Shown: piece by piece, positions 3,391 through 62,953 of the stretch | How the letters are laid out: each line of letters opens with the position of its first letter | Position numbering within the stretch: the first letter of the stretch is position 1 | Assembly (NCBI GenBank): GCA_000165345.1 | Contig: CM000435.1 | Span: 672,001 to 736,000, forward strand | Direction of reading: 5' to 3' | Length of the DNA: 64,000 nucleotides | Translations under genes and position numbers: made by a program | Notes under the pieces: generated by a model | The model's database searches: none | What the model was told of the DNA's origin: nothing | What the model saw: the letters and a program-made list of their open reading frames with translations, nothing else

Positions 3391-3921
3391 TTAATCAGAA
3401 GGCCTATTTTGCAAAGCTTGCTGTTTAATTCTTCTATTATATTCTGCTCTATTATTTGAGTAAAGCTGATACGACTCAGCTTGAGCTGGGGATTTAATAT
3501 TTGGGTTATCTAAAAGATCTTGGATACCTAGCAAAATCTGTTTCATGGTAATTGAGGGTTTCCAATCTTCATCTTCATTTAGAATAGAAAGGCAAACCGT
3601 ACCTGAAGGATATATGTTAGGGTGAAACAGTGGTGGTTGAAAAATACACTTAGGAGGTTTTGCAGGGTAATCTTCAGGGAATGTTACATTTAGCGTATAT
3701 TCACCATTTTCCCAGAGAGTCTAGCATTATAGAAGTAAGAATGATTTTAATTAACAAATTAATTAACTTACCCCACTTTTACCCGGAATCTTGCATATCC
3801 ATTTCATCATATCTTGGCCTTCTCCATCCTCAGATGGAGCATATTTTGCAGAGAATCCAACTGGATGGTCCTTTCGCCATTCTGCTCTTTCTTGAGCAAT
3901 TCTCTTCCTCGAAAAACTCAT
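3391..3921 (-). CDS. UBC9: SUMO-conjugating enzyme E2 (UBC9), two exons: join(3391..3720, 3772..3921), with a 51-nt intron at 3721..3771
   Basis: Exon 1 reads [50 protein letters not shown]. The intron is GTAAGTTAATT...ATGCTAG, phase 0. Exon 2 reads [124 protein letters not shown] carries the E2 active-site Cys. The 159-aa product is collinear with UBC9 (RLAQERKAWRKDHPFGF...[16 protein letters not shown]...LLGIQELLNEPN). The gene is not in the ORF track. Confidence 0.8.
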
Positions 3922-14314: not shown

Positions 14315-14761
14315 ATGCAGGATGAATTTGTTGATCACAAGTTGGAGACGGAATTATTTTCTATTCTATCTCCTGAACTATTAAATGAAATAATGATTGA
14401 GGAATTCCCTCACATAAGACTAGGACCTTCTGTTTCACAGGTTTTAACGACTTTGACAAACGGATTTATTCAAGACGTTGTTAAGAACTCATACATAATT
14501 TCTAAACACAAAAATCACTCCGAAGTCCAAGCTGATGATATACTAGTTTATTTAAGAATGAAATACCCTGATACTAAGCTAGAAGAGTTTTGTGAAACTA
14601 TTTCACAAAGGAAAGAAGGAAGGAGCGGAGCTGGCACTTTAGAAAGTGAGGAGGGCAATGCTGTAAGTAATAGTGGATTACTATCGATTAAATTATTTAA
14701 TACAGAGAGATTTAAAAGTAATTCAAAAATAATCAACAATTTGCGGAATAGTTCAATTTAA
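14315..14761 (+). CDS. Small histone-fold protein, TAF13-like (TFIID subunit 13 / SPT3-N-like)
   Basis: SQVLTTLTNGFIQDVVKNSYIISKHKNHSEVQADDILVYLRMKYPDTKL aligns with TAF13 ...ILEDLVIEFITEMTHKAMSIGRQGRVQVEDIVFLIRKDPRKF, giving a helix-loop-helix-loop-helix histone fold. ATG verified. Confidence 0.5.
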   Translation: MQDEFVDHKLETELFSILSPELLNEIMIEEFPHIRLGPSVSQVLTTLTNGFIQDVVKNSYIISKHKNHSEVQADDILVYLRMKYPDTKLEEFCETISQRKEGRSGAGTLESEEGNAVSNSGLLSIKLFNTERFKSNSKIINNLRNSSI

Positions 14762-14843
14762 GCCTGAAGGCAGATATAAGTTTTAACATTAAAGATAAGC
14801 GGCTCTTTTTATAATAATTACACGAAGTTTAGGAATTTTCAAA

Positions 14844-15860
14844 TTGTTATCAAAAATAGAAGAAAGAAGGATCAGCCAAAGGCTGAAGCAGATCAACATA
14901 GCAAAGAATAGCGTTGGATATCAAAGGTACACAACTGCGGTGAGAAAAAATGAAAGGAAGAGAGAGTTAAGTTTTACTTGGCATCCTTCTACCCCAGATC
15001 CATACTCAAATACAAGTAAATCATGCTTTTCAGGTAGATTAAAAGAATGGAAATTGAGATTACATCTTTGGGGAAATCTTGATGATCTAGAATATAGTAA
15101 TCTAATTCAAAACAACTTAAAATTCCCACCTGGAGCAAATTCAAACCCTTTTAGTAAAGTCAATTATTTTGAAAATATTTTAGATAATGGTAATGACAAT
15201 ACGAATGAGTCATCACTTAAGTTTATTAGGTTCTCTGAACTCAGAATCTCTCCAATTAGTTTTTCCGGACAAAATTCGTTAATCAAAACTAACAGAGGCG
15301 AACGAATTAGCAAATCAGATTCTCTAGTAAATTCGATCAAGTTGTCTAGAAAAATCTTGTTGCCAAAAGTAATGGATTGTGAGAAAAGCCATGATATTAT
15401 GAAATATATCACTCTTTTCATTCCAGATAATTACAAAGGCATGCTGATATGGAAATCAACTAATTTTATACGTCATTGTGATATTATCCTTACAGCACAC
15501 AAACACCGTCTGAAAATCTTAAAGCATGGTTTATCTCTATTCGAATTTAACAAGAGGTATAATATCGATGTTTCTGGGCTAGCACACAACTCAAACAATT
15601 TTCTGAAGGATATTCAAATTAGTATATCCGGTATTGATAGCAACTCTAATAAATTATGCAAATTAAGTGATAAGCCATATAAAAACATCTGTACTCTAAT
15701 AAGTCACCAAAAAATGATTAGTCATTTTTCAAAAAAAGTAGTTTTGACTCAAAACAAGTTATTTGGTTTCAGAGAGCAAGACGTATTCAAGCTGTCTTTT
15801 GCCTATCACCCTTCCTCTATCATTTACTACAAGATCCTAGAAAAGCTACATAAGAGTTAA
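14844..15860 (+). CDS. SLBP: Histone mRNA stem-loop binding protein (SLBP)-like RNA-binding domain protein. The 5' end is unresolved: the open frame has no ATG before the RBD.
   Basis: RLKQINIAKNSVGYQRYTTAVRKNERKRELSFTWHPSTPDPYSNTSKSCFSGRLKEWKLRLHLWGN matches the SLBP RBD ([22 protein letters not shown]...[31 protein letters not shown]). The track start at 14844 is TTG, the frame opens at 14799 after TAA, and the first in-frame ATG is about 175 codons downstream, after the RBD. Confidence 0.6.
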   Translation: MLSKIEERRISQRLKQINIAKNSVGYQRYTTAVRKNERKRELSFTWHPSTPDPYSNTSKSCFSGRLKEWKLRLHLWGNLDDLEYSNLIQNNLKFPPGANSNPFSKVNYFENILDNGNDNTNESSLKFIRFSELRISPISFSGQNSLIKTNRGERISKSDSLVNSIKLSRKILLPKVMDCEKSHDIMKYITLFIPDNYKGMLIWKSTNFIRHCDIILTAHKHRLKILKHGLSLFEFNKRYNIDVSGLAHNSNNFLKDIQISISGIDSNSNKLCKLSDKPYKNICTLISHQKMISHFSKKVVLTQNKLFGFREQDVFKLSFAYHPSSIIYYKILEKLHKS

Positions 15861-16086
15861 TTACACCAGCACCAATTTCTGTGATAGAATATGAATAATC
15901 CTATGCTCAACGTTTCTAATAAAAAGTCATTTGCGGGAATATTTTACGAATATCACAATATGAGGAAACTAATTTACTGGGTGGGGGGACTGAGGGGATC
16001 TTCCAAAACTTCCGGAACTAAGAGTTTTATATTTTTTACACAATTTTTTGAAAATATTTCTGTTTCAATTCTCGGGGTGTTTAATA

Positions 16087-17028: not shown

Positions 17029-17160
17029 TTGATTATTAGAATATTAAGTATATTTCATTAATGCCTTTTTAACATTTAAATCTTCCTTTTACGCATATTG
17101 GCGCTAATTAACGTGCCACTGTAAAAAGAAATAAATAAGAATAAATGAGTCAAATAGTAA

Positions 17161-19210: not shown

Positions 19211-19223
19211 GCGGTACCGCCAT
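19211..19223. promoter_or_regulatory. GC box GCGGTACCGCCAT upstream of MCM5
   Basis: Direct reading. It is nearly identical to GCCGCTACCGCCAT at 33001-33014, upstream of the Cys-rich gene. Confidence 0.35.
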
Positions 19224-19315
19224 CCCCACATTTTTTTGAAATTATATTTCTGAATAATGCTGCAATATAAGCAAATTAATTAATAAATTTCGTGTGACTA
19301 TATAACCCTTTTATT

Positions 19316-21691
19316 ATGCAAAATTCAATAGGAACGATTTATTATAGCCATCCTACTCGAGATTTAGAAAAGGGCGATTGGAATAATGATACAGTAAATA
19401 GTTCAGTAGGTCTACTCTCATTAGAAGAATGTAGAAGTAAATTTAGCAATTTCATCAAAAACTTTAATCAAGGTGGAGAATATATTTACAGAGAGATGCT
19501 AATAAACAATATTTCTATTGGCGAATATACACTTAGACTCGAACTTCACCATTTGAGTATTGATGAGGTTTCTTGCTCAGAAATGGGAGAAAACACTGAG
19601 AATGCAAGTTATGATGGGAACCTTATAGATGGGCAAGAAAATGACTCTGATAATTTTGTTAATGGCGTAAGGACGAGCAATGAATTATGTTGTTTAATTC
19701 AATGTTTCAAGAATGCACCACTAAAATATATTCCAATTTGTGAAGGCGTATTAAAAGAAGTATATTTAGAACTTGTGGGAAAACATAAAAAAGAAATATC
19801 TGAGGAAGAGATTAACGAGATTGTTCCAGATATACAGTTACAAATTGTCTCAAATCAAGAGCCAACCTTAATTAGGGATCTCAGAAGTAATGTTATGGAA
19901 AAACTGGTCACCGTTCCTGGAATAGTTATCCAATCTTCAAAGCCTCAAAAGAAAGCCTCTAAGCTTAAAATTTTATGTCGCCAATGTAAGGGTACCAGAA
20001 ATATAAATATCCCAATTTGGCGTCAAGGTACAATGCTTCCAAGAGTTTGCAATACAACTCCAATAGGAGATGCACCAAAGTGCCCATTGGATCCATATTT
20101 TACTCTTTGCGATGAGTCTGAATACATTGATATACAAAGCATGAAATTCCAGGAACTTCCAGAACACGTTCCTACTGGAGACATTCCTCGTAATATTTCA
20201 CTACATATGACACGCGGACTTATAGACAAAGTGATTCCAGGAAATAGGCTCTATGTTGTAGGTGTGCTTTCTTCCACAGATAAGGAATCATCGAAGGCTC
20301 ATTCTAGCAGTAGAAATGGCTCTCTCAGAACATCCTATTTGTACGTTATTGGCGTAATGAACTATGGGAGTAGTTGGTCAAATAAAAATACAAATACTTT
20401 GATAAAGAACTCATCAATTAGCAACCAATACAATGAAATAGAAGAATTTCGTCGTATTTCATCTTTACCAAATATTCATGAGCTAATTGTTAACAGTATC
20501 GCCCCTGCAATTTATGGGAATGAAACAATTAAACAAGCAATAGCATGCTTACTTTTTAGCGGGAGTTCAAAGTGTCTACCTGATGGTAATAGAATTAGAG
20601 GTGATTTAAATGTTTTGTTGTTAGGAGACCCTTCAACAGCCAAATCTCAACTTTTGAAGTTTGTAGAACAGGTTGCCCCAATATGCATTTATACGTCAGG
20701 TAAAGGAAGTAGCGCCGCTGGTCTTACTGCTGCAATAGTTAAGGATCATGCGAATGGTGTGTATGCACTGGAGGGTGGAGCTATGGTACTTGCAGACGGA
20801 GGGGTCGTATGCATTGATGAGTTTGATAAAATGCGTGATGATGATCGTGTAGCTATTCATGAAGCTATGGAACAACAAACAATAAGTATTGCAAAAGCAG
20901 GAATTACGACTATTTTAAAAGCAAGGTGTTCTATATTGGCCGCTGCAAACCCCACTTTTGGTTCTTATGATGATAGCAAGGACTTAACACAACAACATGA
21001 TTTTGAATCTACGATTCTATCAAGATTTGACCTTATATTTTTATTAAAAGATGAAAAAAATGTTGAAAGAGATAAGCTAATAGCCTCGCATATTGTGGAG
21101 CTGCATTCTGGTATTAAAGGCAAGATTAACGGCGACTGCTCAGAATCTACTAACTCTCTCCAGTTCGAGCAACTGCAAAAGTACATTAATTACTGCAGAG
21201 AGTTTATCCATCCACGTTTATCTCTGGATGCTGCTGCGATACTAGAAAATTTTTATGTCAAAATAAGAGAAGATAACCGTGAAGATACGAACAAAGCAAG
21301 CAAAGATAGAATACCAATAACAGTTAGACAGTTAGAGGCAATCACAAGAATTGCAGAGAGCTTTGCAAAAATGGAAATGCAGAATATCGCAAGCGAGAAA
21401 CATGTCGAGATGGCTATCAAATTATTCAAAAATGCAACAATAGAAGCAATTAAATCAAATATTCTATTACTTGACAATCTATCGCCAGCAGAGCAATCTG
21501 CTATTATCGATGCAGAGGTTGCTATAAAAAATAGGATTCCAATAAAAGCAAGGGCAGGAAAAGCGACAATAGTCAAGGATTTGGCGTTAATTGGATATGA
21601 CCCATATTATTTAACAAAAGCCATGAAGATCCTTATCCAAAAGGGTGACCTGATCGAAAGATCAGATTTTTCTATATTCAGGGTTAAGTAA
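19316..21691 (+). CDS. MCM5: DNA replication licensing factor MCM5
   Basis: Walker A is [16 protein letters not shown], Walker B is [43 protein letters not shown], the arginine finger is ILSRFDLIF, and the C4 zinc finger is CRQCKG...[13 protein letters not shown]. The closest pattern is MCM5 ([48 protein letters not shown]). Confidence 0.85.
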   Translation: [791 protein letters not shown]

Positions 21692-21717: not shown

Positions 21718-22669
21718 TTATTGTTCATCGTCTGAAGATCGAAATTCAAATTTGTAAGAAACGCCTTGAAAAGGACTAATTGCTGTGCTTTCAGATGAAG
21801 AAACTGTTACATTAGGATAATAATTAGCATCTTGAAAGCTTCCAAGTGAATATAGAGGAAGATTTGAGCTATCTTCCATTATATGAAATGATCCAATGCC
21901 ATTTAATTCTTCTATCTGTATTCTTCTTGCAAGCTCTTCATCCGAGATTTCTGTGCGTAGAATGTTTGACTCACGATTTTCAATCTGCGATATACTTCCA
22001 TGGCATTCAGTATTAGCAGTCTCCATATTAACCGTAGTATCTATGTTTCTTGGTCGCTGGCGCCTGCCTTGGCAATTTTGTCTAGACGAATGGGCAATTA
22101 ATGAATGAGTCCACGACTTGAATGAGCTAATTATCCCTGAACTCTGATTTGAAGTGCTCTTCTTTGGATTCCTTGATCTGTTCATCTTGATTTTGTTTGC
22201 CAAGGAGCCATTCGCATTCTGCGCAGTGTGGTCCGACGAGGAGTTTTCTATAGATGCATTAGTTTTTTCACGAGCTTCCCCTCTTTGTAATGCTAGTTGA
22301 TTAAGGTCTGTATCTAATTCAAAAGATTCAGCTAAATTGCTATTAAATTCATTATCATATCCTGGATACCGGCTATTCATCTCGTGATTCGACCTTTGCG
22401 CTTCCGAAGATGAAGTGGGGCGATTTACTATAAAGTTATTTGAACAATTAACTCTACTAGCGCCTAAGCTTGCATCCTCCTGATTTGATCTAGCCGAAAG
22501 GGACACCGACCCATCCGTAAGGACCCCCTTTTGATTAAGATATTTTTTCCTTTGTTTATCTCTATATTCGGCTATTTCCGATTCAATATCATAGCTTTGT
22601 TGTAATTCTATAAGCTCGATTCAAGTCGAAAGTTGTAAAAAGTAGCAACTTACTTTGGCCATTATGCAT
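21718..22669 (-). CDS. Ser/Asn-rich hypothetical protein; proposed join(21718..22607, 22654..22669) with a 16-nt first coding exon and a 46-nt intron
   Basis: The track start at 22504-22506 is GTG, and the frame stays open upstream to 22620 with no ATG. An upstream ATGCATAATGGCCAAA is followed by GTAAGTTGC...GCTTATAG and, in phase 1, joins exactly into the ORF frame (MHNGQK|LQQSYDIESEIAEYRDKQRKKYLNQKGVLTDGSVSLSARSNQ...). Confidence 0.45.
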
Positions 22670-22861
22670 ATTTGAATAGCGCGAGGGAGCTATAAATTTA
22701 AGAACTACACGTCGGTATAAGCTAAATATCAAATAAAAAATGAAAAATGATCCGAGTATTTTGCAATATCACGAACTTCCACTTAACAATGTCTTTTCGG
22801 CGGCAATTAATTAGAATCACTGAATTAGAAATGAAGAGAATATTAGTTAAAAACTAGGTTA

Positions 22862-24469: not shown

Positions 24470-24849
24470 TGTGTACAATGGATACCTTACTATTGTCAAG
24501 CTTACAATATTCTGGTGTCTTTTCTTTGATACCTTACTATTAGATAATATTCTGGAGATATCTTAGCAATTCTACTTTTATAATTTTTGATGTGAGGGTA
24601 AAAAGCCGCATGGCGTAAAGAACGCGCAAATCCACTTGAATGTTTAAATAAATTCAATCTAAAGAATTCTTAAATAGCTTAATTTCGAAGTTTCTGCTCA
24701 AATGCTACAAAAAAATCATGGGTTCGGACTGATTATATTTGATTAAAATAGTATCTTTGATTATTGTTTTTATTTTTCATGGAGTCTTACGCTATACGAC
24801 TTTCTTTCACAGTAAGGTATTTATTTCTCCATAATTAAAACTCATCAAT

Positions 24850-27830: not shown

Positions 27831-27845
27831 AAAGGCGCGCGATTT
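27831..27845. promoter_or_regulatory. GC-rich palindromic box AAAGGCGCGCGATTT (E2F-like GGCGC core) in a divergent promoter
   Basis: An isolated GC-rich element in 70% AT intergenic DNA. Similar GGCGCC / GCGCGCCAT boxes recur upstream of most genes here. Confidence 0.35.
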
Positions 27846-28263
27846 GTGGGGTATATTTATTTATTCTGTATTTTGTAGTGAAAGAATTGCAAATACTCCC
27901 TGATCAATTTAACTGAACAACTGTATTCGTTGATTATCTTTAGTTTTGATATTCTAATTTGAGCTTTTATTTTTGAAAACTTATTCGATTTTTTATTAGA
28001 TCTCGATGTGGAATATTTAAGCCTATTCTAAACGTGATTAATGTCTCGCGCAATGAAAAGTGACTGAAAAAGGAGTAAGCGATAAATTATTAAATTGAAG
28101 GGCAATTTATGACAGGTTAACTTCATTTATATTGCTTATATTAACTATTGTATTAATCTTGGAGAATAGTTTGTAAATATGTAATGTTATTTAGGGAATT
28201 ACATCAAATATTAACTTCATATGAAGAGGCTCATGTTCTTTATTTTTGAACGATCACGTATCT

Positions 28264-29595: not shown

Positions 29596-30425
29596 TATGG
29601 TAATAAATGTTGTATTTAATCAATTTTCTTTCTTGGAATAACTTCGTAAATCCAACTCAATTTTTTAAGTATTCTTTAGACAAAGTTGTTGCCTTATATT
29701 CAAACACTTGTTTAAAGTTAACTTAATATTTTCTCGTAATTATTTTTTCATCTATTCTCATCAAACTGCATTGACAATTTAAACATTTTTTGAACCTCTG
29801 GTTTATTATTTGAATTTTTTTTCTCTAGCAATGTTGAATGAACAATAATATTAAGTTTAATCTTATATTTTAATATTAAGCAAATTGCATATCTTTTCGA
29901 ATGAAAAGTGCGAAAAAATAAATAAGCTGGGAATATTTTGTGTAAATAATATCTAGGAATAATAATTATAAATTTATAAGTCTATCGGCTTTATTACAAC
30001 TATATTGAATCCATTAAAACTGATTATTTGGATAACTGAAATATTAGTTAAAAAAACATGTATTATCATTCCTAAATATTAATAAATTTTCATTTAAAAA
30101 GCTTGCTCATGTTAAATTGAACTAAATCCAAAATTGTTGATATTTAACCAAAGTTGAAGAAATATTATTGTTTGGGGCAACAAATTCTAGATATTGAAAA
30201 GAAGCTACAAAAAGAATGGAAATAATTAAAATGGTTGATCAATTCAAACGACACTATTTAATAAATTGTAGAAAAATTCAAGAGGTCAATCTAAATAAAT
30301 ATTTTACGTAAACCATTAAATTTAATTGGCATTAAATCAATAATTTTCAAAACAATGCCAATTCTATTAAGAAAAAAATATTTATTTTCTTTTCAATGAT
30401 TAATTTAAGAATAATTTGATTAACG

Positions 30426-31572
30426 TCAATAGCTCGTTTTAATTTCAATATTTTCAATTGACTTTAAAATGCTATCTAAACCTTTTATTAACCCTATAAA
30501 TAATTAATGAAAAATAATATAAAATAAATAACATACCTTCATTCATCAAAAAATCTTCTTCGTTCTTTCTGTTTTGTTTCAATGCATGCGTGAAATCCAA
30601 CCATCTAATGTCGCATTTTTCAACGTTTAACCTGAATTTATAATTAGACAATCAAATATTCCTCGACTTACAACATAGAACTAGTTTTTTTTGTAATATA
30701 TTTTCTTACCTATCGAAAGCTAATACAATTGAGGTTGCAATAAATCTATAACTTTTTTGCCTTTCCAACCAGAATTTCAGCAGCTCAACTTTTTTTCTTG
30801 TTAATCTAATCAAGTTCGGCGAAAGTTTTAGAAATTCAGACAAAAGTTTCATTGTTTCATTAGAAGTTAATTCTTTACCTCTTTGTCTCGAAATTGTAAT
30901 TTTATCACTAATTAGTCCTTGTATTCTAATTCCAATTTCATATTGGCATGAGTTGTTAATTATCATATACTGTTTAATAGATTTACGTAAAGACTTTAAT
31001 TTATAAAGCATGCCATTCATGAATTCAGTTTTTTCCGGGATACGTTCAATCTTACAAAAAATATCGTTGAACTCTTGTACTAGATCTTCATCTGGGAATG
31101 TTTTAGTAAAAACTTCTCTTAAGTTATAAATAGAATCATTCTTAGATTCTCCTATCCAAGATGTTCCCAATTTCAAATCAATAATGTTAATATTCGAATA
31201 TCCGCTCAAAAAATTTTTCATTTCGATTGCAGATTCAATTTTGAAGTGTTGTAAATTGTGCATTTTTTTATTTAATATTGAATTAATAAAAGATTTCCTT
31301 AAATATATTTTTTTTGATTTCTTTCCAACTTCAATAATAAGCACAAATCTGATAAACTTAGGAATAATATCATGACGTTTGAGGAGATGTTGTTTGTTAA
31401 TGGAACTATAAAAATCCAACTCATTGCAATTATCATTCTTTAATATCTTATAAATATACTTGTTATCTTTAGTAGTTAATAATAGAGTTGATCCCATAAA
31501 TCTTTCATTCTTTTCAGTGGAAAGAACCTGAAAAGGAAAGAGCTCAAAACTATTTATGCTTGAACAAAACAT
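30426..31572 (-). CDS. Inositol polyphosphate kinase (IPK family; IPMK/IP6K-like), three exons: join(30426..30493, 30537..30631, 30710..31572)
   Basis: Exon 1 carries the IPK inositol-binding motif NIIDLKLGTS (PxxxDxKxG) and the SSLLF-type motif SIVLAFD. The track ORF stops there at an AG|GTAAGA. Downstream exons restore the conserved C-terminus: RWLDFTHAL is the IDFAH catalytic motif and NEG|GLIKGLDSILKSIENI is the GYLxGLxNLI motif. The introns are 78 nt (GTAAGA...TTCAG) and 43 nt (GTATGT...TTTATAG), with consistent phases. Confidence 0.7.
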
Positions 31573-33000: not shown

Positions 33001-33014
33001 GCCGCTACCGCCAT
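33001..33014. promoter_or_regulatory. GC box GCCGCTACCGCCAT in the Maf1 / Cys-rich-gene divergent promoter
   Basis: Direct reading. It parallels the box at 19211. Confidence 0.35.
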
Positions 33015-33133: not shown

Positions 33134-33285
33134 AAATAAAAATGAACCCGCATTTTATCCCTCCATTTTTAAGCGGACTATATGCAACCAGTAAAGAGTA
33201 AACATTTTTAGTTGTAAATTTTTAATACGAAATTTAAAGTATTTGCTCAAATTCAGAAAGTGTTAGTTAAAGTCGTTTAATAATC

Positions 33286-35418: not shown

Positions 35419-35532
35419 GAATACATCAAATAAATTAAATTAGTGGCAACTCCTTAGCACACGCACAAAAGGCATAGTACTTGAATAGATATTAATTTTA
35501 CTAACCAGTTACTTGACGGAACGTAGAACAGT

Positions 35533-35547
35533 GTCGCGCGCCATATT
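35533..35547. promoter_or_regulatory. GC box GTCGCGCGCCATATT about 115 nt upstream of the rhomboid gene
   Basis: Direct reading. It shares GCGCCATAT with the box at 57976. Confidence 0.35.
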
Positions 35548-35824
35548 ACGTAAATGCTAAAGGCTAGATATTCATTAATCTAATACCGAAATTGTTTAAC
35601 ATGTGCATAAAGATGTACAATATGTTTTGTCATTTTACATTGTAGTCAGTTTCCAAGAAATCATTTGAATTGAACAGACCCAGTAAAAGCAAGTATTTAG
35701 AAGAAAATATTAACTTTTATAGAAAAAATTGATAGTTTAGAATATTTATTTACGATAAATTATTAATATTAGGTTTAGTTTGAGTTTTTAATTGAACTCA
35801 TAGTTTGCGTATCTTATTGTTTCC

Positions 35825-38473: not shown

Positions 38474-38523
38474 TTATCTGCTTCACAATCTGAGAAATTA
38501 AAACAATATTGAAATTTTTTGCC

Positions 38524-38546
38524 TATATATATATATATATATATAT
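38524..38546. repeat. (TA)n microsatellite upstream of the importin-beta gene
   Basis: Direct reading of the sequence. Confidence 0.9.
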
Positions 38547-39116
38547 TATATTGCACCTATTTAGTTTTAATATAAGTGGATGTTAAACCTTTAAATTAAT
38601 AATTGTTAAATAATTTATTCAATTAATCCGCTTTTACGCCAGATATGGGGTAATAAGAGGGGGAAACTAATAAATAAATTTCTTTTGAACCAAATAAAGT
38701 TTTTTTAAAACATTAACTATCAAAGAAAGATTAAAATGATTATTTCTTGTAATTATTTCTAAAATAACTAATTTATTATCAACATTTGTCCGAACAGAAT
38801 ATTCTAAACTTCTAATAGCATTCAAAAATTTTATTTTTCAAAATATAATCAATTTCTATCAAATTTTATCAATATTTTATTCTTTGAAACGAATGATTAT
38901 TATATGCTGAAACATCATTAATGTTTTAGTTTTTATTTGAATTTAGATGATCTTTGAATCAACAATATAACGTTACCGCCAGCTTAGCCATAGTAGATAG
39001 ATTTGCGTATTGGTTATTATATTGCATGTAGAAATTTCTCTTATTGGATTAATCAAAAAATAATTATCATAATGGATTAATTTATAAATTCTTGGCTAAT
39101 TTATTTGTGGTTTCAA

Positions 39117-42100
39117 ATGATAAACCCGATAACGCTACTAAATGCAAACATAAAAACTCCAAAGATTTTTAATAAGAAAAAAAAAGATAATGAGAATCAA
39201 GATAATGATGATGCTGAAGTAATTGTCAAAAAGACTCCAGATGATACCGATGAGGTAAGTATATAATTAATATTGTTTTCCATTATTATTCTTTTAGAAT
39301 GCAGTAGAGCTTGAAAGACCTCAATTTATCGATGAACTAGCAAATGTTCCAGTATTGAGTATGGACGATTTTATAAGCAAATATGTTGAAGAAGATGAAG
39401 CTATTGATAATGAATATGAATCTGTTGACGAACTTGATGCGATAAATTTTGAAGAAAATAATTCTGGTACTAATGGTAAGCTTCCAAGAATTTATATTAT
39501 TAGAACTCATTAAGTATTTAGACAAGTCATATATGCTTCAAAGGAGATGGAAAGTCGTAATATGGGACTTAAGCATTGAAAACTTATGTGATGAAGAGGC
39601 CAGCGTATTTATAGAAATAGATTTTGGAACATCGAGAGAGGAATTTCGCGTGCAACTTGAGTCAAAAGAATATATCTTGTCAAATGGAGAACTCAAACAT
39701 CGCCTGAGAACACCAATTGTGCATAGCCTCCTTAAAGATAAGCCTCAAAAAATAAAGTTTCATCCTTCTTTTGAATATAGAGGCTCTTATTATGATATTG
39801 AAAAAGAAAAACTCAAGCTTTCTGCCTGGAAATATCATAATTTTAGACTTAATACATTAGACGCGATGTTTGAAATCAAATTAAATACATGCGCAAATTC
39901 TGATCTTCAGCATCAGTGCTACTTGATGAGATTAGGTGATGGTCATACATTGGAAAAGGTTTATAGGATTTGTTTCAATCTATACTTCCAGGAAATTTAT
40001 GATTTTCAGCTTTCACTTGATCGATTTGAAATAAAGGAACTATTAACTCATGATAATATTATGGACAGAGTTAGTTCTCTAAAAAAAAAGGCCGTTGAAA
40101 AAGTTCCTTTTAATAATAATTCTTTCTTTGAAATAGATACTGAAATTAATTCAAATGAATTCTTGTCAGAATTTACCATTATTGAAAATACTGAATTTGA
40201 AAGTATCAATAAAAGTAGATATCGAAATTTATTGGGAAATAACAATAGGATAGGTAATGATCCAATTAAAAAAATATTTCAATATATTTCCTTTAATTAT
40301 AGTGAAAATGAAATGGGGAATGTATTAACCGAAAAATCTAAAGCTAATAGTAAAACATTGAATTTAGAAAGTTCGATAAATGAACAAGAGAATAAAGGGA
40401 AAATCGAATCCAATATAGTTGATCAAAGAAAAGGAATCTGGGATACTTTCTTGGGGTTTATTGGCCTGCTAAAGGAAGATCAAAAAGATAATATTCAAAA
40501 ACTTGATAGTTTATTAATAGAAGCAGAACTAGACCAAGCAAAACTCCATCCTGCTAATTGTAGCCCAAGATTAAAAATTAACATAACCTGGCCTACAACG
40601 TTGAAAAATTATACTATGTATAGCAACATACAAAAAGGTACCAATTGGCCTGTATGGGAAAACCTAGGATCAATTTATTTGCGAGGAACAATAGCAGATT
40701 TGGAAAATTGTTTTATTGATATAGATGTCATTGATAATAATAAAGACAAAACAATAAACTCACAGGCAAGAACTCATATCCCACTAAAAGGATTGATCGA
40801 GACTAATACAGTTATTGAATCAAATCTATCTGAACCTCTGTGGTTAGCAGAAAAAGTAAAAAAAACTGAAGAGCGTAGAATACTTGCTACTTGGGAATTT
40901 GGGATGATTACAGGAAATATTTCATTCAAGAATTATCCTTCACAACGGCAGAAAGGGAATTTTATTCATTTTGTAAAAGATAGATTATATTTAATGATTA
41001 AAATAATCAAAGTTGACAATATTATAACTTTTGAGAATTTAGAAAATACTCTAGTTAACATTTCAATCACTCATCAAGGGTTAACCTCAAAGTCTAATTC
41101 CAATATTTGTAGCAGTTTAAAAGACAGACCAATAGATGATTACATTATTTTACCATTGCAGTTACCACCAATATCAGAACTTTACTTTTTTCACTTAGAG
41201 AGTTTGGGAGAGATTTATATAGACTTATGGGTTACTTCAGATAATCAAAGCGGTTCTAAAATGCAACATGCAGGATTTACTTCGTTCACAATTTGGGACA
41301 CAATATTTTCTATCAAAGGCGCAAAAAGACCAACATCAGAAAGATATTATAGTTCTTATACATCTGGCTCAAATGAAAAGTTAAAGGTAAGAGTATTGGA
41401 ACAAGAAGTCCCGTTAAAATTCCTTTTCCCAACAGATAGAGTTGCTAATATTTCCTTTGAAGCATTTATTACTCCAGATATATTATCTATAAAACCAAAG
41501 GGTAATCAAGCAATTTGTTCAAAAGATACTGGAATATCTGAAAAAATTGACATTTTTTTAAGAAGTCGAGTAGAACTTTCACCGAGTCAAGCACCAAAAG
41601 TATATCAAAACGAAAAAGCTTCTATTGAGGTAACATTAATTAGTAAACTAGGCACAGGAATAATTGGGAGATTCTTTATATTTTCTTCTTTTAATCATAG
41701 AGGAAATGAGCTTATGCTTACACAATTCGTTAGACCAATTCCTGCGCCAAGTGGTATTATTACTCCAAGAGCAATATTTCATTTTGTAAGATGCATCCCC
41801 TTCATTAATACAAGTTTTAGAGAACCTCCAAAAAGAACAAGAGACAAGTTTAACAATGAAACGTCTAAAAATGATTCTTTAAAAAGGGGTAGTCAAGAAT
41901 CCAAAAGCGCATATTCGTTTGATAAGTCACATTATTGGTTCACCCCAGACTTTACACTACTGAGTAATGGGGGTGGAGTTATTGACCATTGCCTTTTGCA
42001 TGTTTCCTTATTGTTAAAGCAAAAAATTCAAGCTTTCGTATGTATTGGCACAGTTGCTGGGGGGCATTTTCATTCTTGGGTAATGTCATGGCACTTCAGC

Positions 42101-46754: not shown

Positions 46755-49700
46755 ATGAATGTATCTTTCCCGACCATTTCAAAGATAGTAAAACAAGAAG
46801 AAAATAATTATGTATTTTTTGGTGAAAAGGTAAGCTAATCATATTTTAATTTTATAGCCAGTACATTCAATCATTTTAGATAAGTATTCGTGCCTGCAGC
46901 CAAAGCTGTGAATATCTAACGGTTTTTCAAGATAATGAATTTTGTGGGGAAAACTACAAACTGGGACTTTCAAACTTGGGCAGTTTTGAACATTTTGATT
47001 CAATATATAAAAGAAGTGGTTTTGGAGAAAAGTTCAAATTTTACCGAAATTTATTTTTAAATTCAGAATTTTATTTATTAAAATTAGATCATTTGTTAAT
47101 TAATTCTTGTAATGAAAAAGAGCATATTCAATATGGTGATCAATTCTATATATCATCTTTTATTCATGACGAAGTGTTTATAGTTGGATTTGAACAAACT
47201 TCTGGTAAATTTATCTTATCTAAATTTGAAGAAATTTCTAAATCTCTGAATAATAATAACGGATCAAATGATTTCCTCATAAAGAAATATCAGTGGTCAC
47301 TAGAAAAAATAGCAATTACAAAAGATGAGTCAATCCTAGGAGGGATTAGTAATTCCTCCATTCCAAACGCGCATTCGGTGAAATATAATGAAATATTCAC
47401 AATTAAATTCAATGGTGAGCACATTGTTTCTACTAACGCAATTAATACTAACTTAAAAATGCAATTCAGCCAATTGTCTATTGGTAATACTTCTATCTCT
47501 GGAAGAGGTAGCTATTGGACAATCATTCCATTAAAAATTGAAGGAACGGTATATCCAAACTGGTTTTTGATGAAGGAAATTCTGAAAAATAAGAAAAATA
47601 ACACTCTGAAATTTTTGGATAGCAAAATAATTGAAAAGCTGATTTATAATCAGTCTAATTGCTCTAAAGTAAAAATAGAACCAATTCAATTGGAAACTTT
47701 CGAATTAGTTCTGAATCGCCCAATTGGTTGGGATAAACCTAGTATTAATTTTTCTGAAAATAAATTGACTTTAAATACTTCAAATAAATTTCTATCAAAA
47801 TCTGTAATTTCGCTTCCTAGTATTACTGGTTTTGTATTTGACCATATGGAGATTGGCATAAATAACACTATAAAGCATAATATAATTCCGAATAATCTCA
47901 GTAGTTTTTCAGTAAAAATACAGGAACAATTAATACTTGAAGATATTTTGAACTGTTTAATATGTAATAATGGTAATTACATCAAAGTTACTGAACAAAT
48001 AATTGAATTTTTTCACAACTGTGAGCATCTAGATTTTGTCTCAGAAGATTTATATATATTTGAAATCAATTCAACTTGTAATGAAAAATATCTGAATCTG
48101 CATTTTATTTCTGGAAGAGAAGGGATATCAGCATTTTCCCACCAAATTTTTGATGATCCCAGTAATTTACAATATATATATAAAGATATGATTAACAATA
48201 AAATTCTTGAAGAATCAAAGCCTGAAAATACTTTGGATGATTTACTTGAAATAAAGAACATTTTGCCTGCGAATATTATCAAAAAAAATCCTTCTCTTTA
48301 TCCGCTTTCGTACAAAACTTTAGAACTATCTTCTTTGCATAGAAGAATAAGGAAGTTTTTAAAGGTTCACGAGAGTGGCAATTCTCAATTTGGAATTATT
48401 TCAAACACATTATGTGATTCTTTCCGCGAACTTTTGAAGCATTTTATGATTAAAATTACAAAGTTTGAATCATACCTAAGAAAAGGGCAGCTCACAGTTC
48501 AAAATATATGTACATACTCTCAACAGGCGTTAATTACTTTAAAAGCTTTGGATTTAATCTCAGCTCAAGTCTTACATAAAAAAGGGTGTGAAATTATTGA
48601 CCAAGTATATAAAATTGCAAATAACGAATTTAAAGGCGAAGAATCATCTCAGAAAATTGCAAATTTTGTTTTCAATCAAGTTTTTCTTTCTTGGTTTAAA
48701 CACTTTTTAACGCCCTGGTTAAAATTTGGAACTGTTTTTGATCATTTTTCAGAATTTATTGATTACAATTTAAGTACTAAAAAAAAAAAGTTTAATAAAG
48801 AAAATATTCACTCGAAAAATTTTTACAGAGAAAAAGAAAGAAAAATATATTTTATACTTCCTTCATTTATGCATGAATTAGTTGAGAAAGTCAATTATAT
48901 TGGCTTAGTTAGTCATTTTGTTTCTCATATCAACCATTTGCATAGTCAAAATCTGTCTTTTGACACAGTGAGGGAAAATAGAGTGTTAAATTGTAAAAAA
49001 TTAGAAAATACATTGGAACAAATGTTACACTCTCTGAGCAATAAATCTGATTTAATAAGAAATGAAGAAGTTAAATTATATATCAACGCAATGTTTTTTG
49101 AATCACAACTATTAATTTACAGTGTTTGCAACTCAATTACCGATGTCAGTTATTGCATTAATAAATTCTATGAAATATTTTTTTGTGCAAATGATTCTCT
49201 CATTCAAGAATTCATCGAACACATTCACAAGTTAGGGTTTAGAGGGGAAAGAGCTGACTGTAATTCGTCTAGTAATATCACACGTAAATGGAGTGAACTT
49301 ATGGTTAAATATTATGGAGTATTAAATGATTCAGATAAATCTGATCGATTTGTTTGTAAAGTTGAGAAAAATTTGATTACAGAATCGGTAACAGAGGAGT
49401 TATTTAATCCTGTAAAGTGGGAAATAAAATCAGTTTTATTTGAAGAAGATTTTAAGTTTATACAAAAAGATAAACAAAATATCTCATGTTCGGATGCATT
49501 CAAATATTTAACAATTGAATTTCATGAAATAAAGACATTCGGTTTGATTTGGCCTAGAGAATTGCTGTGTAAATACGAGTTAATTTTTAGATTAGTTTTC
49601 CATTTAAAATATATTAATTATTTGCTTAACAATATTTGGATACTACATCAAACTTCAAATAATTTGGACTGTGAAATGAGCAAAAAAAAGCCTAATGTTT

Positions 49701-50410: not shown

Positions 50411-50697
50411 ATTTCCAATCAAACGAGTTTCACCATAGTTAGAAATTTATTAACTAACACACTACGATATTATGAATTCTTGTTTGTTGAAATACTTGTG
50501 GGTAGATGATCTTGTAGCGCTGGCAGATTGGCGCATATTTAAGATATTATGACGTCTCAATAGAGTTTATTAATGCGATTGTTAGTTTCCAAATAAGGTT
50601 CAAGTGGATGCTTTAGGCAATAATATTATATCGTATATTTTTCAATTGAGAAATTGGTATTTTTTATTATTACAATTATCTGTTGGAAGCTGTGAGC

Positions 50698-53560: not shown

Positions 53561-53855
53561 TATTAAATATATAGCAACGTAAAGATTATAATTAAAAACC
53601 AAAAGTATGTATTAATTAATGATCAATTATACATTTTTTTAAATGATTTCTCTATATCTATTAATTGTTCGATAGTTTAACTTATTCAACTTACATGCGG
53701 TATAAAAATATATTGCAGTTGTGTGGGGATCTTATCAAAGAAAAGTATTCGAAATTTTTTTTAATTAGTAAATAATAATCAAATAAAATAATAACACAGA
53801 AGTTTATGTTCGGCCATTAAAATATCTAACTTTAATTTTATTATCAGAATTTAAA

Positions 53856-57609: not shown

Positions 57610-57975
57610 TATAATTAATTTAATATTGATAGCTCTGTATTGGCCAAAGTTAGTTACAAAAATATCCTTAATAATTCTTTTTTCACTCCGAAAGCTAATG
57701 TTTAAATAATTCAGTTAAACAACTGAATTAAATCATTAAATTCAGAATGAACCGTAAATTTGCTTTAAATCTATAATTTATAGTACAAATATAAATTTAT
57801 ATTGACCATTAATATGAAGTATAATCTACTAGAACTTGTGATTTCCAAACTAATCCAAGTTTAAATAACTGAAATAACGAGACAATTAAAGAGGCGCCAA
57901 CCCGACTCAAACATCGAGAAGTGTGTAATCTAAAAATTTTACTTGAATTACTGAAATATTTCTTCTTTAGGGCAA

Positions 57976-57998
57976 TGGCGCCATATAGTTTTCGCCCC
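57976..57998. promoter_or_regulatory. GC boxes TGGCGCCATATAG and TTTTCGCCCC in the ataxin-2-like / S1-nuclease divergent promoter
   Basis: Direct reading of the sequence. Confidence 0.35.
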
Positions 57999-61263: not shown

Positions 61264-61475
61264 TTTAAAGTAAAAATATAATATATTTTGTATTTAATAA
61301 TTCGGAATAAGTTGTAGAATTATCCTTGTAAATAATTATGAAAATAATAAATTAAATTTAGCGCATGCAATACTTTCAATAAAAACCCCACTAAATAGCG
61401 CATGCAACGATACATTCACATGAAAATTAAAGTTCGATTAATATTTATATTTATTATTATTTTGAATTATCTGCG

Positions 61476-62669: not shown

Positions 62670-62953
62670 GATTTAAAGTGGCAATACAAAAATTCTTGTT
62701 TTTTAATGCAATCTTTAAATAGTAAAATCTATTCTTTTCCCGGTTAATCAATTTGCCTCTCAAAAACTGCTGCCACTCAACACACAACAAAGGCGCGTAA
62801 AAAAAGAATATACAAGATTAATATCAAAAATTTAATCAGTTTAAGTATTAGTTTTACCATTTTTCTTTAAAATAAAAATTGGAATTATATATTTTTACTC
62901 AAACTATGTTATTTCTGAAGTTCTAATTAAATAATATTTTTTTAAGGTGAAAA

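Follow-up and report, generated by a model that had tools for sequence, protein, structure and literature searches.

Short GC-rich boxes recur 5′ of start codons in a stretch of 64,000 nucleotides of the Cryptosporidium parvum genome (GenBank assembly GCA_000165345.1, contig CM000435.1, positions 672,001 to 736,000 of the forward strand), here called the window, whose own numbering is used throughout. These boxes probably belong to the published Cryptosporidium "E2F-like" motif family, i.e., [C/G]GCGC[G/C] with A/T flanks (best form TGGCGCCA) together with GGCGG and GCGGG forms, for which E2F-DP is the proposed reader. They match the published motif in sequence, are enriched in non-coding DNA, are restricted to those gaps between genes that contain promoters, and are maintained in orthologous promoters. 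The boxes had first been noticed in the letters of the window alone, at nine promoters. This original prediction is partly confirmed: the boxes are real, enriched and conserved, yet less pervasive and less exclusive than was claimed.

The window

Four proteins encoded in the window (the cap methyltransferase Abd1, an S1/P1 nuclease, a rhomboid protease and dynactin-6) are identical, residue for residue, to those of C. parvum Iowa II. The MCM5 gene, at 19316-21691, is cgd7_2920 [see Mullapudi et al. 2007, PMC1779779]; thus, the window is part of C. parvum chromosome 7. Among Apicomplexa, E2F/DP has been retained only in Cryptosporidium (PMC12246861), so any argument for E2F/DP applies only because the window is from C. 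parvum. The window has 30.6% G+C, is about 80% coding, and holds about 31 genes nearly free of introns, with spacers of 20-1100 nucleotides (nt) between them. Non-coding DNA is here the window after masking of the genes defined by open reading frames (ORFs), i.e., about 12.5-12.7 kb, compared with 51 kb of coding DNA; its G+C is 26%, that of the coding DNA 32%. The gene models were later refined with orthologue annotations, which gave 23 promoter-containing intergenic regions. No tRNA genes, an alternative source of GC islands, were found in the window.

Enrichment over base composition

The null model consisted of 500 shuffles of each non-coding segment that preserved dinucleotides. In non-coding DNA, [CG]GCGC[CG] has 7 overlapping matches at 5 loci (0.86 expected), TGGCGC/GCGCCA has 6 (0.96 expected) and GGCGC/GCGCC has 10 (2.8 expected), and not one of the 500 shuffles reached any of these counts; for GCGC alone there are 20 matches, compared with 8.5 expected. 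Coding DNA is at expectation for the same three words (3 vs 2.4, 3 vs 4.1 and 10 vs 10.4, respectively). Thus, the equal frequency once composition is normalised that the original prediction had named as speaking against it was not found: 7 vs 0.86 in non-coding DNA stands beside 3 vs 2.4 in coding DNA. In raw counts, CGCGC occurs 11 times in the 12.5 kb of non-coding DNA and 4 times in the 51 kb of coding DNA, and GCGCC 10 times in each, i.e., words with a GCGC core are denser in non-coding DNA although its G+C is lower. The control words GGCC, CCGG and GCCG/CGGC, given the same shuffles, were enriched neither in non-coding nor in coding DNA.

The published 8-mer W-SGCGCS-W has six matches in the whole window, compared with 1.35 expected, a count reached by 0 of 100 shuffles. 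The exact non-coding sites are only those at 57892, 57976 and 62791; the other three are in coding sequence. When non-coding 6-mers were ranked against a Markov expectation without any target, GCGCCA (6 vs 0.86) and GCGCTA (8 vs 1.56) both ranked high. Alone, these two would fail correction for 2080 words, which of the ranked 6-mers only CCCCAC survives; therefore, the case stands on the targeted test and on conservation.

Conservation in seven other species

With MCM5, importin-beta and pyruvate decarboxylase as anchors, 12 syntenic loci were obtained from seven other species: C. ubiquitum, C. felis, C. ryanae, C. muris, C. canis, C. bovis and C. andersoni. Gene order is identical in these loci, and the intergenic DNA is AT-rich and mostly diverged. 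In each of the seven species, GGCGC/GCGCC in non-coding DNA is 3-10 fold above expectation (observed/expected 5/1.1, 9/1.6, 4/0.75, 8/0.76, 4/1.4, 12/1.2 and 5/0.54), and in coding DNA it is at or below expectation. When the eight species are pooled, divergent gaps contain 1.26 boxes per kb (27 in 21.4 kb), tandem gaps 1.00 per kb (28 in 28.0 kb) and coding sequence 0.15 per kb (35 in 230 kb). The convergent (3′-3′) gaps contain no box, neither in the 9.7 kb pooled from the eight species nor in the 1.6 kb of the window alone.

For the nine promoters of the original prediction, a strict box is present in 26 of the 35 orthologous promoter-species pairs, where 4.7 were expected from shuffles, and the wider box family in 32 of the 35, where 8.75 were expected. 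Positions are held within otherwise diverged AT-rich spacers, as can be seen in three alignments: A1 (62791), A2 (rhomboid protease promoter) and A3 (Maf1 promoter). Well-conserved sites are 57976, 62791, 35535, 17100 and 24623. Taken over eight species, this is evidence that individual boxes are kept in place by selection.

Individual sites

The sites in the window are as follows (distances are to the ATG or gene named; aa, amino acids).

15930-15939: TTTGCGGGAA, 5′ of the JAB/Rpn8 gene; the window's nearest match to the canonical TTSSCGC form.
17097-17107: ATTGGCGCTAA, of the TTGGCGC half-site type, 60 nt 5′ of the ATG of the Abd1 cap methyltransferase, in a tandem spacer of 132 nt.
19211-19229: GCGGTACCGCCATCCCCAC, TACCGCC (GGCGG type) adjoining the G-box CCCCAC, about 100 nt 5′ of the MCM5 ATG.
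24620-24638: GAACGCGCAAATCCACTTG, a CGCGC core fused to ATCCACTT, in a bidirectional promoter (535-aa gene at 155 nt, cytidylyltransferase gene at 226 nt).
27831-27845: AAAGGCGCGCGATTT, two overlapping SGCGCS cores (GGCGCG and CGCGCG) with the G-box GTGGGG next to them at 27846; 117 nt 5′ of the dynactin-6/hexapeptide ATG (27718, minus strand) and 429 nt 5′ of a 443-aa gene (28264, plus strand).
28047-28051: CGCGC, 216 nt 5′ of the ATG of the 443-aa gene.
33001-33014: GCCGCTACCGCCAT (reverse complement ATGGCGGTAGCGGC), in the bidirectional promoter of Maf1 and a 204-aa gene.
35533-35547: GTCGCGCGCCATATT, with a CGCGCGCC box 118 nt 5′ of the rhomboid protease ATG (35418, minus strand).
38974-38980: TACCGCC (GGCGGTA), 5′ of the CEP76-like gene.
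50517-50536: TAGCGCTGGCAGATTGGCGC, a GCGC-N7-TTGGCGC pair about 170 nt 5′ of the ATG of a 259-aa gene.
57892-57899: AGGCGCCA, the second exact W-SGCGCS-W in the promoter shared by the S1/P1 nuclease and an ataxin-2-like gene.
57975-57984: ATGGCGCCAT, a perfect 10-bp palindrome with the exact published consensus, in the same bidirectional promoter (S1/P1 nuclease ATG at 130 nt, ataxin-2-like gene at 369 nt).
57989-57998: TTTTCGCCCC (reverse complement GGGGCGAAAA), a G-rich box adjoining the palindrome, which resembles the G-box more than E2F.
62789-62800: AAAGGCGCGTAA, a GGCGCG core with an exact W-SGCGCS-W at 62791-62798, in a bidirectional promoter (ERV/ERGIC at 124 nt, 187-aa LisH gene at 161 nt).

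All ten strings quoted in the original prediction were found in place, except that GATTGGCGCAT starts at 50526 instead of 50527, and the boxes lie 60-220 nt 5′ of the nearest ATG, in agreement with the 50-300 nt that had been proposed. Five boxes were absent from its list: those at 15930, 28047, 38974 and 57892, and CCCGC at 33147. SGCGCS cores are present at 27834, 35535, 57893, 57977 and 62792; five of the six core positions (GGCGC/CGCGC) at 17097, 50526 and 24620; GGCGG-type boxes at 19211, 33001 and 38974; and GCGGGAA at 15930.

C. parvum, C. canis, C. felis and C. bovis all share an unchanged ACGCGCC at 62791 (A1), and C. andersoni has GGCGGGC and GCGCCAA. The spacer 5′ of Abd1 (box at 17100) measures 130-220 nt in the five species compared, and all five have GGCGC in it (in the four other than C. 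parvum as GGCGC, GGCGCCC, GGCGCG and GGCGC), the probability expected per species being 0.00-0.18. The box at 35535 has the same position in four species, as GGCGCGCG, GCCCGCG, GCGCGC and CGCGCGG, and is flanked in all four by invariant TTACGTAA and GTCAAGTAAC (A2). At 24623, C. ubiquitum, C. felis and C. ryanae have exactly the CGCGCAAATCCACTT of C. parvum, and C. muris lacks it. In the S1/P1 nuclease promoter, the box at 57976 takes the forms CGGCGC (C. canis), GGCGC (C. felis) and GGCGCC (C. bovis); that at 57892 takes the forms GCCGCC (C. canis), GCCGC (C. felis) and CCCGCC (C. andersoni), beside a conserved aattgtctc; and the GGGGCG of 57989 is kept in C. canis and has degenerated in C. 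felis and C. bovis. The pair at 50528 is kept as GCGCCAA-N7-GCGC in C. canis and C. felis, and C. bovis has GGGCGCC followed by GGCGCC. GCGGGAA (15930) is kept in C. ubiquitum, and the orthologous promoters of C. ryanae and C. muris have GGCGCC.

Other sites have been less stable. The box at 28047 is CGCGCG in C. ubiquitum, within a conserved block (aaacgtgattaat..gtctCGCGC), and is lost in C. felis. At 27831, C. ubiquitum has CGCGGG and GTGGGG in the same place, C. felis has lost the box, and the promoters of C. ryanae and C. muris have other boxes; the history of this box (27834) looks like site turnover.

The TACCGCC variant

TACCGCC (GGCGGTA) is found in the promoters of MCM5, Maf1/204-aa and CEP76 (19215, 33006 and 38974). 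In the window it occurs three times in non-coding and once in coding DNA; over all loci the counts are 11 and 4, despite there being 3.4-fold less non-coding DNA. C. ubiquitum, C. felis and C. ryanae have kept it. At MCM5, TACCGCC(A/T)TCCCCACA has the same spacing in C. parvum, C. ubiquitum and C. felis (alignment A4); in this promoter C. ryanae has GGGGCGC and CCCCAC, and C. muris GGCGGTA and CCCCAC. C. ubiquitum also keeps GGCGGTAAC (38974). In the Maf1 promoter, GGCGGTAGCG(G/C)C (33001) is kept in C. ubiquitum and C. ryanae. The aligned position, which has GGCGGTAGCGG in three species, has GGCGCC in C. felis and GGCGC in C. muris; GGCG is invariant, and GGCGGT exchanges with GGCGCC (A3). 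Because the forms replace one another at the aligned position of Maf1, and GGGGCGC replaces TACCGCC at MCM5 in C. ryanae, the comparison suggests that GGCGCC and GGCGGTA are interchangeable and not separate families. Of the two sub-families that had been proposed, TACCGCC thus persists, as a conserved variant. The "GCGCCATAT" group was rejected: orthologous promoters do not keep its ATAT flank, which is the A/T flank of the known consensus.

How widespread the boxes are

The boxes had been said to mark nearly every promoter. The strict core (GGCGC/CGCGC) is present in 8 of the 23 promoter regions, and in none of those in the first 16 kb of the window; 14 of 23 have a box when GGCGG/GCGGG is admitted, and 17 of 23 when G-boxes are admitted too. 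With 8 strict and 14 relaxed, "nearly every promoter" is too strong. The boxes had also been described as almost the only GC-rich islands outside coding sequence. There are 38 non-coding runs of G/C of at least 5 nt: strict boxes make up 10, GGCGG/GCGGG 8 and G-box-like runs 8, which leaves 12 others, i.e., strict and relaxed boxes together account for 18, which is well short of that description.

Identity of the boxes

There is no essential difference between the window boxes and the E2F-like motif published for C. parvum: they share the organism, the core, the over-representation, and the location 5′ of ATGs in short spacers, including those of tandem/polycistronic runs. No upstream motifs of C. 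parvum are more over-represented than TGGCGCCA / [C/G]GCGC[G/C] and GGCGGG, which were named E2F motifs 3 and 4, the GGCGGG type being motif 4 (Oberstaller et al. 2013, PMC3734150). Over-representation in non-coding DNA of chromosome 6 was first noted by Bankier et al. 2003, as cited in PMC3734150. The motif is found 5′ of 161 of 200 co-expression clusters and is bound by no tested AP2 domain (PMC4117751); genome-wide, it is the top motif in sporozoite peaks of chromatin accessibility (assay for transposase-accessible chromatin with sequencing, ATAC-seq) and in polycistron spacers (10.1101/2025.01.17.633476). A 2025 review gives the consensus as [A/T][C/G]GCGC[G/C][A/T] and lists two E2F genes (cgd1_1560 and cgd6_1430) and two DP genes (cgd7_3650 and cgd8_1850) (PMC12246861). 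The upstream region of MCM5 (cgd7_2920) was already part of a motif study in 2007, in which the only species compared was C. hominis, with intergenic regions 95% identical (PMC1779779).

The boxes also resemble the canonical E2F-DP sites of animals and plants (TTTSSCGC, e.g. TTTGGCGGGAAA and TTTCCCGCC): common to both are the symmetric CGCGCG/GGCGCC core, the promoter-proximal position and the presence 5′ of a DNA-replication gene, MCM5. In non-coding sequence, the 7-mer TTSSCGC is matched at 15933, 17098, 50528 and 57894. Unlike canonical sites, the window boxes mostly have a T-run flank that is absent or reversed, and the Cryptosporidium motif, instead of defining a cell-cycle regulon, occurs at housekeeping genes with many different functions. 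Apicomplexans are reported to lack the pocket protein (Rb) partner (PMC3734150). The proposal of E2F/DP-type promoter elements thus holds for Cryptosporidium, given the literature, the enrichment, the promoter specificity and the conservation; as a general feature of apicomplexans, which is how it was first worded, it does not.

E2F/DP as the binding factor, and the occupancy and activity of the individual sites, are inferred. The E2F-DP winged-helix heterodimer would bind the near-palindromic CGCGCG/GGCGCC core, each subunit touching one CGC half. Located 60-220 nt 5′ of start codons, many of them in short bidirectional promoters or between tandem genes, the boxes would then probably mark a nucleosome-free region and probably drive transcription, chiefly in the sporozoite and the early asexual stages. 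A Pfam search found no E2F/DP domain among window ORFs of at least 100 aa; autoregulation via an E2F/DP gene inside the window was accordingly dropped, there being no such gene by Pfam.

Several points weigh against assigning all of the boxes to this one family and reader. Experimental binding of E2F/DP to these motifs has never been shown in Cryptosporidium, where most components are without validation (PMC12246861), and the window has no exact canonical TTTSSCGC 8-mer. The exact W-SGCGCS-W is matched equally often (3 vs 3) in non-coding and coding DNA, the numbers per window being small. The original set is heterogeneous: from its list only 57976 exactly fits the 8-mer, plus the overlooked 57892 and 62791, and GGCGCC, TTGGCGC, CGCGCAAATCCAC and TACCGCC may be bound by different factors. 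The eight species share ancestry, so their pooled counts are not independent, and not every species keeps every box: C. felis has lost 27831, and the boxes of C. muris are often elsewhere.

Alternative explanations

It is conceivable, though somewhat unlikely, that the GGCGGTA/TACCGCC box and the composites of fixed spacing are distinct and undescribed regulatory modules, each read by a specific pair of factors, rather than generic E2F sites. The composites are as follows.

MCM5 promoter: TACCGCC(A/T)TCCCCAC.
24620: CGCGCAAATCCACTT.
Rhomboid protease promoter: TTACGTAA-N-GCGCGC-N-GTCAAGTAAC.

An unlikely explanation is that the boxes are functional but are read by a factor other than E2F/DP, such as an ApiAP2 domain outside the tested set, a zinc finger of the C2H2 kind, or a protein of the Myb/SANT or CXC type (CGCG/GCGC cores), which would make "E2F-like" a mere resemblance. 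The lack of a TTTSSCGC 8-mer and the often reversed A/T flanks (AAA..TTT at 27831) are as would be expected of another factor, and the conserved composite boxes (CGCGCAAATCCACTT at 24620 and TACCGCCATCCCCAC at 19215) suggest other or additional partners. However, Cryptosporidium, the sole apicomplexan with E2F/DP, is also the one whose promoters are dominated by this motif, and those C. parvum AP2 domains that have been tested on protein-binding microarrays (PBMs) bind TGCAT, CACACA and the G-box, not GCGC (PMC4117751).

It is improbable that the list mixes at least two motif families, i.e., true E2F-type GGCGCC/CGCGCG and a separate GGCGGTA (TACCGCC) with its own factor, with nearby G-boxes and ATCCACTT explaining part of what had been called GC boxes. 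GGCGGTA/TACCGCC does have its excess in non-coding DNA (11 vs 4) and is a conserved 7-mer in three C. parvum promoters; the G-box CCCCAC (9 vs 0.5 expected) and AAGTGG (9 vs 2.6 expected) are likewise over-represented in non-coding DNA; and the GCGC of the pyruvate decarboxylase promoter at 61361 and 61398 belongs to TGCATGCGC, of which TGCATG alone is conserved. Yet GGCGCC or GGCGC replaces GGCGGTAGCGG at Maf1, and GGGGCGC replaces TACCGCC at MCM5 in C. ryanae, as interchangeable sites of one factor would, and boxes of the GGCGGG type have already been filed as E2F-like (motif 4, PMC3734150).

That the boxes are functionless short GC words picked out by eye on an AT-rich background, as low absolute counts in one window, several listed instances with no more than a 5-mer core and an exact 8-mer as frequent in coding as in non-coding DNA might suggest, is highly improbable and effectively refuted by the shuffles (0 of 500 reach the non-coding counts), the unenriched control GC words, the repetition in seven other species, the retention in 26 of 35 orthologous promoters where 4.7 were expected, and the absence of boxes from 9.7 kb of convergent gaps.

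The reading preferred here thus remains that of the published E2F-like family, probably read by E2F-DP.

Neighbouring elements and gene models

The most over-represented non-coding 6-mer (first gene mask) is CCCCAC/GTGGGG, which is the known ApiAP2 G-box motif, at 3771, 6218, 15981, 19224, 27846, 53723 and 61386. It is often directly beside a GC box; at 53723, five species have kept CCCCACA in a promoter without a GCGC box. Like the boxes, the ApiAP2 G-box (G[T/C]GGGG) and AP2_1 (TGCATGCA) are GC-containing islands in AT-rich promoters, enriched and conserved in the window. They differ in having another sequence and AP2 domains as binders by PBM (PMC4117751), and they accompany the GCGC boxes without being variants of them: the GCGC boxes lack the G-box core, and the G-boxes are separate neighbours (19224, 27846, 15981 and 53723). 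The pyruvate decarboxylase promoter (61355-61410) has two copies of TAGCGCATGCAA, 37 nt apart. Their GCGC was rejected as an E2F box, as C. canis, C. felis, C. bovis and C. andersoni keep only TGCATG(C), which is the AP2_1 motif.

The element ATCCACTT / AAGTGGAT recurs in unrelated promoters, at 24631, 38574 and 50602 (also at 22778), and is conserved in four species at 24631, where it is fused to CGCGCAAA, and at 50602. It may be the "unknown" published motif (A[T/A]G[T/A]GGA.A) or an initiator-like element. Within 35480-35560, the TTACGTAA at 35546 is an invariant palindrome similar to sites of the bZIP/PAR type; CGTAAA, too, exceeds expectation in non-coding DNA (15 vs 5.4). The Maf1/204-aa promoter has, at about 33140-33180, a second composite that is conserved, CCGC-N8-GGAGGGATAAAAT-GCGGG with a long A-run after it, which is recognisable in all five species examined, C. 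muris included. At about 38640-38690, 5′ of importin-beta, there is a long conserved block, CCCCCTCTTATTACCCCATATCTGGCGTAAAAGCGG (minus strand), with two C-runs and GGCG/GCGG, which is nearly identical in C. ubiquitum and C. ryanae and partly retained in C. muris.

Plain ATG-to-stop ORFs under-call genes at 14315-15860, 21718-22620, 38474-39472 and 46880-47458. Orthologue gene calls point to introns or upstream exons in an SLBP-domain gene, the 264-aa gene after MCM5, the CEP76-like gene and a gamma-tubulin complex gene; the 5′ exons of the CEP76-like gene fall within an apparent "intergenic" region of 1 kb. GCGC at 22398, 22460 and 47369 was excluded from the promoter boxes, being probably in coding exons according to the orthologue-corrected gene models. 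The largest convergent gap (29596-30705; 1.1 kb, 22% G+C), which has no ORF of at least 100 aa, no tRNA and no GC box, contains TGCATGC at 30583 and TTACGTAA at 30304, and may conceal a small gene or a non-coding RNA.

Significance

The phenomenon itself is already known, and no new biology is claimed for it. What has been added is the positional conservation in eight species, the exclusion from 3′-3′ gaps, and GGCGGTA as a conserved variant that exchanges with GGCGCC; in addition, boxes that are real regulatory signals were recovered from raw sequence alone. Cryptosporidium ranks among the major causes of diarrhoea in children, and little is understood of how it regulates its genes. Its dominant promoter element is believed to be the E2F-like box, and among apicomplexans E2F/DP is peculiar to this lineage. 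If the GGCGGTA box and the composites were indeed distinct modules, genus-wide footprinting of this compact genome could define a promoter grammar beyond the published motifs.

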